Below, in pieces: positions 40,565 to 43,875 of a DNA stretch of 64,000 bases. The DNA lies in contig JAJFII010000111.1 of NCBI GenBank assembly GCA_021775095.1, positions 36,801-100,800 on the forward strand, written 5' to 3'. Position 1 is the stretch's first letter. Each line of letters opens with the position of its first letter. A program made the translations under genes and the position numbers. The notes beneath the pieces are model-generated. The model was not told the DNA's origin. It ran no database searches and worked only from the letters and a program-made list of their open reading frames with translations. This stretch comes from Rhodospirillales bacterium. GTDB lineage: Bacteria; Pseudomonadota; Alphaproteobacteria; Rhodospirillales; Casp-alpha2.

Positions 40565-40674
40565 TTCTCCGTGCCCGCCAAATCAACGCCTCCGGTTGCC
40601 AGCCCGCCCACCTTAGCACAAGCGCCGGGTTTTGCGCAGGGGTGTGGCCCACTTTACGAGCATTGAACCTTATT

Positions 40675-40697
40675 TTATCTATTTCTGGGATAGATAA
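40675..40697. repeat. perfect inverted repeat in the AT-rich leader upstream of the Cas12/TnpB-like gene
   Basis: TTATCTA (40675-40681), a 9-nt spacer, then TAGATAA (40691-40697). Confidence 0.5.
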
Positions 40698-40750
40698 TTT
40701 CGATGTTTTGTGTAATTATCATGGCGTGTCTTGCGGAATTGGGGCGAATA

Positions 40751-41482
40751 ATGCCTGAAGTTCAATCGGCGTTTCTTACTGTTAAATACAAACTGCACAA
40801 TCCGTCGCAACGCCGACGGGCGTTGCTGCTTGATGCCATGCGCCGTGCTCATTTGGGTTATGATAAGATACTGAAGGCCGTAAGGTCCGATGTTGAAGCC
40901 ATTGCCGGCATCGAAGTTCGCAAAGACCGATGGGAAGCGGAGAAGACACTCGTCAAGAAATCGCAGGACCTGGCGAAGCCATTACCCATTGGGGCGGGTC
41001 CAAAGCAAGCCATCATCGCAGATGCTGTCGCGCAAGCCGCAAGTTACGTCGAGCTGAAGCGTGCCGACGATAACACATCCTATCCGACGACCCCCCGCCT
41101 CAAGGTGGAGAAATCCGATTTTGATGGCGCTATCGACGGAATCGCAAATTCACAGTCGATCATGGAAGAAAACGAATACCGAGACATGCTGGCAAAACTG
41201 TCGCGCCCCGGTATACCGCGCCCAATTAATATCCTCAAAAATCGTGTCAGCGATGGGGCGCTATTGTTAGAAGATCAAAAAGGGCGTTTGTTCGTTTTCA
41301 TCAATCTTTTACCAAGCACCGCAAAACGAAAACACCCGGTCGATTTGACAGGTTTGATTGATACCCGTACCGGAGAGGTCATGGCGAAAAAACAGCAAGT
41401 GGAGATCTGTTCCCGCTCGAAGGTAGCCAATGGCACACAAAGAAGTTCAGGAAACAGGGGACGTTACAATCGAGCCGTTTGA
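40751..41482 (+). CDS. TnpB/Cas12-like nuclease, N-terminal (WED/REC-like) reading frame, interrupted by a frameshift
   Basis: The ORF is open from 40703. The ATG at 40751 follows GGGG. MPEVQSAFLTVKYKLHNPSQRRRALLLDAMRRAHLGYDKIL follows the strand-then-helix pattern of TnpB/Cas12f N-termini. After the A6 run at 41387-41392 the frame decays into a short non-homologous tail. Confidence 0.7.
   Translation: MPEVQSAFLTVKYKLHNPSQRRRALLLDAMRRAHLGYDKILKAVRSDVEAIAGIEVRKDRWEAEKTLVKKSQDLAKPLPIGAGPKQAIIADAVAQAASYVELKRADDNTSYPTTPRLKVEKSDFDGAIDGIANSQSIMEENEYRDMLAKLSRPGIPRPINILKNRVSDGALLLEDQKGRLFVFINLLPSTAKRKHPVDLTGLIDTRTGEVMAKKQQVEICSRSKVANGTQRSSGNRGRYNRAV
41387..41392 (+). other. A6 homopolymer at the -1 frame junction of the nuclease gene
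   Basis: The zero frame reads GCG AAA AAA CAG. The -1 frame, or an A7 allele, reads ...MAKK-TASGDLFPLEGSQWHTKKF... and runs straight into the RuvC ORF. Confidence 0.7.
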
Positions 41483-42306
41483 TTTTTGACGGCCAGGATT
41501 TTTATTTTGCCTGTACCTTTCAATTTTCGTCAGAAATCAGAGAACCGACATCCTATCTGGGCAATGACCGGGGTATTGAAATGTTGGCGGCATGGTCGGT
41601 TGTGGACGGTGACGGGAAACGGATAGATGAGGGATGGATTAGCGGCGAGCGACTTCGTTCCGTGCAGCGTCGTCAAGAACGGGACCAAAAAGAAACGCAG
41701 CGCAAAGGTAAAGTTTATAAATCCAAAACGCGGCGCCATATTGCGGATGAAGAAGTCCACAAAGCCGCGAACGAAATTGTTGCGGCCGCAGTTAAACACA
41801 ATGCGCTTGTCGTCATGGAAGACTTGAAGACGATTTCTATGGGGCCGCATCATGCGAGGCCAAAAGGCGCGCGGAAAGGCGGATTTCGCCGAATGTTGAC
41901 GCGCGCGCAATATATGAAACTAAAACATTACGTCGGCTATCGGTTGTTGGTTGAAGGGGTCCCACCCATCCGGCGCGGAAAACCAAGTTTTATTGAAATC
42001 CATCCTGCTTATACGTCCGTTACCTGTTCAAAATGCGGACATAAGGACAAGGCAAACAGGCAATCACAGGCATTGTTTATATGTACAAAATGCGGACACA
42101 AAGAAAACGCAGACGTAAATGCCTCCAGCATGGTTGCTGGCAAAGGCATTCATTTTGATACAATTATTAGAGGGAGAAAAAAGGGGCAAAAACTGAAAGA
42201 CGGCGAACAATTTTCGGTCTGGTACGCCGATTTTAAAAGCGGGGCCAGGACACATGCAAATGCGTCTTGGTCATCGGCTCCGTGTTCTGCGAGGATGGGC
42301 GTATGA
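41479..42306 (+). CDS. TnpB/Cas12-like nuclease, C-terminal RuvC + zinc-ribbon reading frame
   Basis: RuvC-I YLGNDRGIEMLAAW, RuvC-II ALVVMEDLK, then IHPAYTSVTCSKCGH...FICTKCGH (CxxC..CxxC), and RuvC-III ENADVNASSMVAGKG. This frame is already open from 41362, reading ...TASGDLFPLEGSQWH. Confidence 0.85.
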   Translation: MIFDGQDFYFACTFQFSSEIREPTSYLGNDRGIEMLAAWSVVDGDGKRIDEGWISGERLRSVQRRQERDQKETQRKGKVYKSKTRRHIADEEVHKAANEIVAAAVKHNALVVMEDLKTISMGPHHARPKGARKGGFRRMLTRAQYMKLKHYVGYRLLVEGVPPIRRGKPSFIEIHPAYTSVTCSKCGHKDKANRQSQALFICTKCGHKENADVNASSMVAGKGIHFDTIIRGRKKGQKLKDGEQFSVWYADFKSGARTHANASWSSAPCSARMGV

Positions 42307-42457
42307 CCATGGTTTTCCATGGCTTACCCGCTTTGTGGATCGAAACTTCACGATGGAAAAACCGCTACGCGCAAGCTCGTTTAACGGTCGGCATAACCGG
42401 TTTCCATCACTTAAATTGTCAATTATCGTCGCAAGAACAAAGAGTTACACCATATCA

Positions 42458-42493
42458 GGCGCGGTTACTGGCGATTTGTGGGGTAACGGTGGC
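42458..42493 (+). repeat. CRISPR-like repeat 1 (36 nt)
   Basis: Exact copy of 42524-42559. It has internal GTTAC/GTAAC 5-bp complementarity. Confidence 0.8.
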
Positions 42494-42523
42494 TCGGTAA
42501 TCGTTAACGCACCATCAAACTGG

Positions 42524-42559
42524 GGCGCGGTTACTGGCGATTTGTGGGGTAACGGTGGC
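42524..42559 (+). repeat. CRISPR-like repeat 2 (36 nt)
   Basis: Exact copy of 42458-42493. Confidence 0.8.
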
Positions 42560-42591
42560 CCAATCAATTATTCGCTTTAACCTCGCGGTCC

Positions 42592-43875
42592 CTAATCGGG
42601 TCCCATGAAAAGGTCCGGTAAAAACAATACCAGCTCGGGAATGAAGGTGATCAACATCAACACCACGGCCAGGGGAATCAACATCGGCAATACGGCAATG
42701 ACGATCCGTTCAAACGGCACGCCGCTGACACTGGTCAGGATATAAAGCCCCAATCCCATGGGCGGTGTTGCGTGACCCATGAGAATTGCCAGGGTTAAAA
42801 CGAGTCCGAAATGAACCCGGTCAATTCCGTACTGATCGACAATCGGCAGGAGGATCGGCACCAGCATCAGCTTCAACGGCACATTCTCGATCACACACCC
42901 GAGAAGGAGGATCAGTATGATGCACAAAACCAAAAAGACGTTTTTGTCCTCGGTCAGCGACAGGAAGCTGTTGGCCAGCAGTTCGGGAATGCCTTCAATG
43001 GTCAGCACCCAACCCATGGCAATCGAGTAGCCGACGATAATCATGACGACGCCGGTCATGATCGTGGTATTTGCGATCGCCGCCCAAATGGCGTCCCATC
43101 GCAAGGTCCGCAGCACCGCGCCGACGAACAAAGAATAGACACAGGCCAAAACGCCGGCTTCCGTCGCCGAGGTGATGCCGGTGGTGATCGCGGTTAATAT
43201 GATAATCGGTGCGATCAGCGCCAGGATGCCGTCCTTGCCGGTCGCGATAATCTGGGAAAACGAGGCCTTCGGTTCGCGCGGGAAGCCCCGGCGTTTGGCG
43301 ATGATCCGGTTGTAAATCATCAGCGACAGGCCAACCAATACACCGGGCACAATGCCGCCTAAAAACAGCCGGCCGACGGATACACCGGACAGGAATGCAT
43401 AGACGACGAGGGCGATCGACGGTGGAATGATGGGCCCGATGATACCCGATGCCAGGGTGATGGCGGCGGCAAAATCCGGCGGATATCCACGGTCGCGCAT
43501 GGCCTTCACTTCGACCGCACCGAGGCCCGCCATATCCGCCGATGAGGATCCGGATACGCCGGCAAAAATCATCGATGACAGGACGTTGACTTGCGCTAAC
43601 CCGGCCTGAAAATGGCCGACCAACGAGGTGGCGAAGGCAAAAATGCGGTCGGTCATGCCGACCGCGTTCATCAGGTTGCCGGCGAGAATAAAAAACGGTA
43701 CGGCGACCAGAGCCGGTTTATCCACACCTTCGAGGATTTGGGTCGGTAAAATATACAAAGAATCGGACCAGCCGAAAAACATCAGCGAGGCAATGACCGA
43801 GGCACCCATGGCAAAGGATATGGGAATACCGAGCATGATAAGGACGAAAAAGCCGCCAATGAGAAGTGTCGCCAT
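42592..43875 (-). CDS. dctM: TRAP transporter large permease (DctM)
   Basis: 427 aa polytopic protein, with DctQ and DctP immediately upstream on the same strand. Confidence 0.9.
   Translation of the reverse strand: MATLLIGGFFVLIMLGIPISFAMGASVIASLMFFGWSDSLYILPTQILEGVDKPALVAVPFFILAGNLMNAVGMTDRIFAFATSLVGHFQAGLAQVNVLSSMIFAGVSGSSSADMAGLGAVEVKAMRDRGYPPDFAAAITLASGIIGPIIPPSIALVVYAFLSGVSVGRLFLGGIVPGVLVGLSLMIYNRIIAKRRGFPREPKASFSQIIATGKDGILALIAPIIILTAITTGITSATEAGVLACVYSLFVGAVLRTLRWDAIWAAIANTTIMTGVVMIIVGYSIAMGWVLTIEGIPELLANSFLSLTEDKNVFLVLCIILILLLGCVIENVPLKLMLVPILLPIVDQYGIDRVHFGLVLTLAILMGHATPPMGLGLYILTSVSGVPFERIVIAVLPMLIPLAVVLMLITFIPELVLFLPDLFMGPD

Follow-up and report, generated by a model that had tools for sequence, protein, structure and literature searches.

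A Cas12f-like effector gene interrupted at an A6 run in a minimal CRISPR locus, probably a young pseudogene

The effector gene and its locus

In the window, which is the whole 64,000-nucleotide stretch of DNA that was analysed, a gene for a Cas12f-like effector is located between a DEDDh exonuclease gene and dctM. The gene is split over two reading frames and is followed by a structured non-coding region and a two-repeat CRISPR array. The features of the locus are as follows.

40751..41392, + strand: N-terminal 214 codons of the Cas12f-like effector, zero frame, aligning to residues 1-214 of intact relatives
41387..41392, + strand: A6 run, site of the frame break; inferred ancestor A7 (GCG AAA AAA ACA), from the relatives' Thr codon (ACN)
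41393..41482, + strand: out-of-frame tail of 29 codons (QQVEICSRSKVANGTQRSSGNRGRYNRAV) with its TGA stop at 41480-41482, from the ORF translation
41392..42306, + strand: C-terminal 304 codons, -1 frame, with a PF07282 match and conserved catalytic and Cys columns
42262..42457, + strand: conserved structured non-coding region (tracrRNA-like scaffold), conserved in 7 loci
42268..42270, + strand: TGG replacing the family stop TAG, which is TAG in 6/6 aligned relatives
42458..42559, + strand: minimal CRISPR array of two perfect 36-nt repeats and one 30-nt spacer

The zero frame at the break is that of the ORF 40703..41482 on the + strand, which reads ...TRTGEVMAKK before the tail; the listed ORF begins at 40703, and the family-typical start of the effector is ATG 40751. 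Positions 41384-41395 read GCG AAA AAA CAG in this frame, the A6 run occupying 41387-41392. The N-terminal piece, 79% identical to the intact relative P0003, comprises the first WED strand, the helical REC domain and first WED strands, and nothing in the family alignment corresponds to the 29-codon tail behind it. An open -1 frame extends from 41362 to the TGA at 42304-42306; it reads ...EKTASGDLFPLEGSQWHTKKFRK... (across the A-run also given as ...KTASGDLFPLEGSQWHTKKFRK...) and offers no usable start codon ahead of TTG 41479. The C-terminal piece covers the rest of the WED domain, RuvC-I (LGNDRG), RuvC-II (VVMEDL), the zinc ribbon (TNB) and RuvC-III (NADVNA). Joined at the A-run, the two pieces give 214 + 304 = 518 aa, and the joined effector matches a family of single-ORF proteins with both halves (E about 1e-280). 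Homology follows the zero frame through ...GEVM and picks up in the -1 frame at T.SGD..., which places the frame change within about 41384-41394. The frame break and its exact position in the effector gene are confirmed and are not a chance pattern.

These results bear out the sequence-only reading in its description of the site: the coordinates and counts that it gave for the break, the tail with its stop and the opening of the -1 frame all hold, and the 518-aa product that it obtained by one extra A or a -1 slip aligns gap-free with relatives across the junction. It had also called the gene a TnpB/Cas12-like nuclease with RuvC motifs, which agrees with the PF07282 match and the conserved D/E/D columns described below.

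At 41474-41493 a hairpin (GCCGTTTGATTTTTGACGGC) with a T-rich tail behind it resembles a terminator and overlaps the zero-frame stop and TTG 41479. It lies within conserved coding sequence (SRLIFDGQDFYF) and is therefore probably a chance match.

Profile searches, including Pfam, NCBIfam and PADLOC, matched the C-terminal piece and returned no profile for the N-terminal piece. The C-terminal piece matches PF07282 (Cas12f1-like TNB domain) at 52.7 bits, against a cut-off of 26.3, and RuvC_1 PF18516 at 23.8 bits, slightly below the cut-off of 26.2. The best NCBIfam and PADLOC matches are Cas12f2/Cas14b: the NCBIfam Cas12f2 model scores 117 bits against a cut-off of 450, over the C-terminal half only. 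The guided_TnpB model scores 88 against a cut-off of 100 for the same piece, and Cas12e and the PADLOC Cas12f/Cas14b models also match it, under their curated cut-offs. Since the curated Cas12f2 and guided_TnpB cut-offs are not reached, the protein is best described as Cas12f-like rather than as a member of a curated Cas12f subfamily. The residues expected of such a nuclease are in place: the RuvC D...E...D triad lies in conserved family columns (LGNDRG, VVMEDL, NADVNA), with D273 and D455 nearly invariant and E357 invariant in the family alignment, and the CxxC...CxxC zinc ribbon is formed by the invariant C426, C429, C445 and C448.

The fold comparison was run on the intact relative P0003 and not on the split gene of the window. 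The AF2 model of P0003 (pLDDT 86.5) finds its closest PDB folds in AsCas12f and OsCas12f (Foldseek E 1e-17 to 1e-15, TM 0.56/0.67; 1.5e-17 for AsCas12f), followed by Cas12e, and a profile search of PDB sequences agrees with the assignment of a Cas12f-like fold. Judged from motifs, profiles and this predicted fold, the gene is that of a Cas12f-like type V effector, a putative RNA-guided nuclease.

The non-coding region, ~190 nt long, overlaps the 3' end of the effector gene and reaches the first repeat of the array. Its sequence is strongly conserved across 7 loci despite saturation of synonymous sites and, between gene and array, has no Rfam match. Of the 50 pairs in its predicted fold, 18 show compensatory changes, and part of the region is predicted to pair with the 3' half of the repeat; 42262-42457 probably serves this Cas12f-like family as its tracrRNA or scaffold. 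The repeats of the array lie at 42458-42493 and 42524-42559 and enclose the spacer at 42494-42523. Repeats homologous to them are found in relatives, where an array has from 3 to 16 or more units, spaced at a period of 66. Searches with the spacer, which allowed up to 3 mismatches in the genome and looked for exact matches in IMG/VR, returned nothing apart from the spacer itself.

G+C content is 47-51% over the effector and array (40600-42600), compared with 55-63% for the genes on either side. Of the effector there is one copy in the genome and none in 5/5 same-genus genomes, and just one other genome, among 60 related ones, has it, at 40% identity; taken together, these features point to a horizontally acquired, stand-alone mini-system. 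The neighbouring dctM likewise has no orthologue in the five same-genus genomes, only paralogues at 60% identity, and no adaptation genes were found near the effector locus. On sequence grounds, the locus appears to be a horizontally acquired, stand-alone miniature type V CRISPR system, composed of an effector of about 506-518 aa, a tracr-like scaffold and a two-repeat array.

Relatives of the effector and the ancestral junction

About 40 relatives were found with the joined two-piece query, the best of them ~506 aa long, 70-80% identical and covering 97-98% of the query. The junction aligns gap-free with these proteins (TRTGEVMAKKTASGDLFPLEG versus TRTGEVMSTRTSTGDLFPLEG and others). Related DNA loci, two from genome contigs and nine from metagenome scans, were compared at the same site; a comparison with orthologues had been proposed in the sequence-only reading, and it gave a uniform answer, all 11 loci and the about 40 relatives being single-frame. 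In 11/11 loci one frame runs through the site with unrelated codons and then a conserved Thr codon, e.g., TCT ACG CGG ACC; ACG CAA AAA ACC; AAA ACA AAA ACA; CAG AAG TCG ACA; GCG GGG TCA ACA; AAA GGT AAA ACG; and TCT GGA CGA ACG. Because the relatives keep one frame, with the Thr codon conserved behind two variable codons, the sequence of the window is best explained as A7 minus one A, a state that, on this comparison, appears unique to the window's lineage. An intact allele of this lineage was found neither full-length nor as a junction-spanning fragment among 5.8 billion protein clusters.

In one member of the same taxonomic family (locus L002, G012:C1:1153927-1154688 and downstream), the effector is 40% identical and its frame is open over 566 aa; the array behind it has at least 16 repeats, again spaced at a period of 66. 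The open effector and long array suggest that active-looking versions exist in related bacteria.

A second relative, 52% identical, is also split, into ORFs of 386 aa and 205 aa (L019 2501-4363; also L020 and L021). Its break lies at a different place, after RuvC-II and without a homopolymer (ATCAATACGGTCAGCAC), and the split state recurs in 8 contigs from several sequencing runs. This copy has chromosomal neighbours, with an asparaginase gene on one side and a gene for a SpoU methylase on the other, and its array has two repeats only, the second degenerate and 92% identical to the first. From these two sequences, decay appears to recur in the effector family.

A further relative, P0027, is an N-terminal-only protein of 285 aa located beside a phage terminase gene (L022 2501-3376, L023 and L024). 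It departs from the family after ...GIMQS and then stops. The contigs that carry it come from three different samples and all end 9-41 nt past the stop; they could mark a strain-variable or assembly-breaking repeat region.

Origin and consequences of the missing base

NCBI and a Logan assembly both contain the truncated product in its exact form, 259 aa long. The Logan contig (SRR15505512_5463, L003; 3,059 bp) also has A6 and is 100% identical over the 1.76 kb aligned. It may share its source reads with the deposited assembly; it excludes an assembler or polishing artefact, but does not exclude systematic error in the reads or an A7 subpopulation in the minority. Genome-wide, homopolymer lengths decay smoothly, and one long frame gives way to another at 0.35-0.76% of homopolymers of at least five bases, compared with 0.62% at random positions in the 5.9-Mb assembly. 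With no excess of frame junctions at homopolymers, homopolymer indels are not widespread in the assembly.

If the missing A were a sequencing or consensus error, the organism would have A7 and an intact 518-aa effector, one A having been dropped in the reads or in the consensus. Homopolymers are the classic sites of such indel errors, and an otherwise intact gene, with intact scaffold RNA and repeats, would be expected under it; the Logan contig, moreover, may come from the deposited assembly's own run. Against this stand the A6 obtained by an independent assembler in a contig identical over 1.76 kb, the 113 contigs without Ns and the clean 3-kb Logan contig, which suggest accurate short reads, for which an A6/A7 consensus error is rare, and the genome-wide absence of excess frame junctions at homopolymers. 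The loss of the family stop codon, a second change specific to the window, suggests real divergence. An error is accordingly regarded as unlikely, and the sequence-only reading, which had offered it as one option, is weakened on this point: the assembler artefact is excluded by the Logan A6, and a systematic read error is the less likely explanation.

The same reading had raised a regulated shift or phase switching, under which the nuclease would be mostly off and -1 ribosomal slippage, transcriptional slippage or A6/A7 replication slippage would supply the full-length protein. Slippage of tRNA-Lys by -1 at the second AAA would indeed give an exact, family-like junction (AKK-TASGD; AKKTASG), the gene has no further disabling lesion, and A-runs are known to drive -1 shifts in IS1 (A6C) and dnaX (A AAA AAG). 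The zero-frame site is, however, G AAA AAA C and contains no X XXY YYZ heptamer, so that perfect re-pairing is available only to a single-tRNA slip on the second AAA. No 3' stimulatory RNA structure was found, the downstream sequence folding no better than shuffles (z -0.16, +1.19 and +0.44). The SD-like string GGAGAGG, 8 nt upstream of the A-run, would suit a programmed shift, but it encodes the conserved T-G-E-V codons and occurs in unshifted relatives too, and is explained as their by-product. Neither a two-frame layout nor a slippery A-run is conserved, being absent from all of the 11 related loci and the about 40 single-ORF relatives, and a relative that is broken is broken at a non-slippery site. 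At six A, the run falls short of the length at which transcriptional slippage becomes appreciable or phase variation frequent; public protein collections contain no A7 allele, and the one independent contig has A6. Slippage-controlled or phase-variable expression is therefore judged quite improbable, and the suggestion of a regulated shift or phase switching did not stand up to the unconserved site, the missing heptamer and stimulatory structure and the shortness of A6/A7.

In a variant of this idea, the A6 run would act as a leaky switch, with low-level -1 slippage or reversible A6/A7 slippage supplying just enough full-length nuclease for a stand-alone, single-spacer locus. A6/A7 is short for a contingency tract, and we consider the variant very unlikely; were it true, a potentially autotoxic effector would be held near-silent, and the locus would hold the first recoding-controlled or phase-variable type V effector. 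A two-piece enzyme, in which the N-terminal fragment would combine with a C-terminal one, started anew at TTG 41479, into an active split nuclease, is scarcely credible. The TTG at 41479-41481 does overlap the TGA at 41480-41482 (GTTTGA), and both halves are otherwise intact. Yet the TTG-started piece would lose 29 conserved residues of the WED/RuvC junction (TASGDLFPLEG...LQSSR), the N-terminal piece bears a 29-residue nonsense tail, and the architecture is seen in no relative. The split enzyme was rejected because re-initiation at this TTG drops invariant residues (G218, P222, W228 and K232).

The reading preferred here is that a real, lineage-specific deletion of one base (A7 to A6) probably inactivates the Cas12f-like effector of a minimal, decaying CRISPR locus, leaving a young pseudogene. 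Inactivation had been among the options of the sequence-only reading, and it is this option that gains support from intact relatives without a slippery site, from the A6 of an independent assembly and from another relative broken elsewhere. Breaks at different positions in orthologues had been named there as a mark of decay, and the 52%-identical relative, split elsewhere, is one such case.

Outside the frame break and the stop loss, the gene bears every mark of constraint, with a -1 frame open over 304 codons and no catalytic or zinc-binding residue lost. Compared with the nearest relative, pN is 0.138 and pS 0.769 for the N-terminal piece, and pN is 0.117 and pS 0.828 for the C-terminal piece; the low pN relative to pS indicates long-term purifying selection on both. 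Synonymous sites are saturated in this comparison (pS 0.77-0.83), hence dN/dS yields no age for the lesion. Private changes at otherwise invariant columns number 4 in the joined protein, against 1-9 in intact relatives. The stop loss adds 12 codons up to the TGA at 42304-42306, giving a C-terminal extension WSSAPCSARMGV that runs into the scaffold-RNA region. With few private changes, and the stop loss as the sole other oddity specific to the window, the lesion appears to be recent. The otherwise intact gene, scaffold and repeats fit a very recent lesion and would equally fit a gene that is still used.

We propose the following course of events. The effector gene would have lost one A from A7, turning GCG AAA AAA ACA into GCG AAA AAA CA; the ancestral A7 would have been the longest homopolymer in the gene, which makes it the likeliest site of replication slippage, the likely cause of the loss. 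Translation from the normal start would then end after 214 native and 29 nonsense residues, and the RuvC and zinc-ribbon half would be left in the -1 frame without a start codon of its own. The early stop and the displacement of this half from the frame suggest that the nuclease is inactivated. Any full-length protein would arise only through unprogrammed background -1 slippage on A6 or through rare reversion; reads would be expected to be homogeneous, and no meaningful full-length protein would be made. The outcome would be a young pseudogene within a decaying mini-CRISPR locus. A self-targeting spacer was considered as the cause of inactivation and is unsupported, as the spacer sequence recurs neither elsewhere in the genome nor in IMG/VR.

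For annotation, the window copy should be recorded as a pseudogene, without joining its two pieces into an intact effector, and mining of the ~506-aa Cas12f-like family should use intact relatives such as P0003 rather than this copy. Two independent chromosomal copies, each with a broken effector and a two-repeat array, provide a small illustration of stand-alone type V decay.

Comparison with known systems

Cas12f proteins (e.g., AsCas12f of Acidibacillus sulfuroxidans, PDB 8DZJ/7WJU/8J12, and Cas14b/Cas12f2) share with the effector family the domain order WED-REC-WED-RuvC-zinc ribbon (TNB)-RuvC. The likeness extends to a size of about 500 aa, to the predicted fold of P0003, which matches them best, and to an array whose repeats are 36-37 nt long, with a structured RNA separating it from the gene. 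Identity between the solved Cas12f proteins and the effector family is only 16-18%. In contrast to Cas12f, the window gene is frameshifted, the array has one spacer and no adaptation genes lie nearby. Of more interest than the frameshift itself are the family to which the effector belongs and the scaffold RNA conserved in it.

Programmed -1 shifts at A-runs occur in dnaX (A AAA AAG), IS1 (A6C) and IS3/IS911 (A AAA AAG). The window resembles these sites in that its A-run falls in Lys codons, a -1 shift would fuse two domains and an SD-like string lies upstream. It differs from them in that the layout is unconserved, the phase of the run does not allow a tandem-slip heptamer, no 3' stimulator accompanies it and the zero-frame product has no evident role.

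The closest parallel is with spontaneous loss-of-function mutants of cas genes (Jiang et al. 2013, PLoS Genet, PMC3784566) and with pseudogenes that arise by homopolymer indels. A selective cause, for example a spacer against the organism's own genome, did not come to light in the window, and there is otherwise no essential difference between it and these cases. As in them, a one-base deletion lies in the longest homopolymer, is lineage-specific and leaves the rest of the locus undecayed, with relatives intact. On this comparison the frameshift is probably an ordinary one, the loss of a single base in the longest homopolymer being the expected death of a cas gene.
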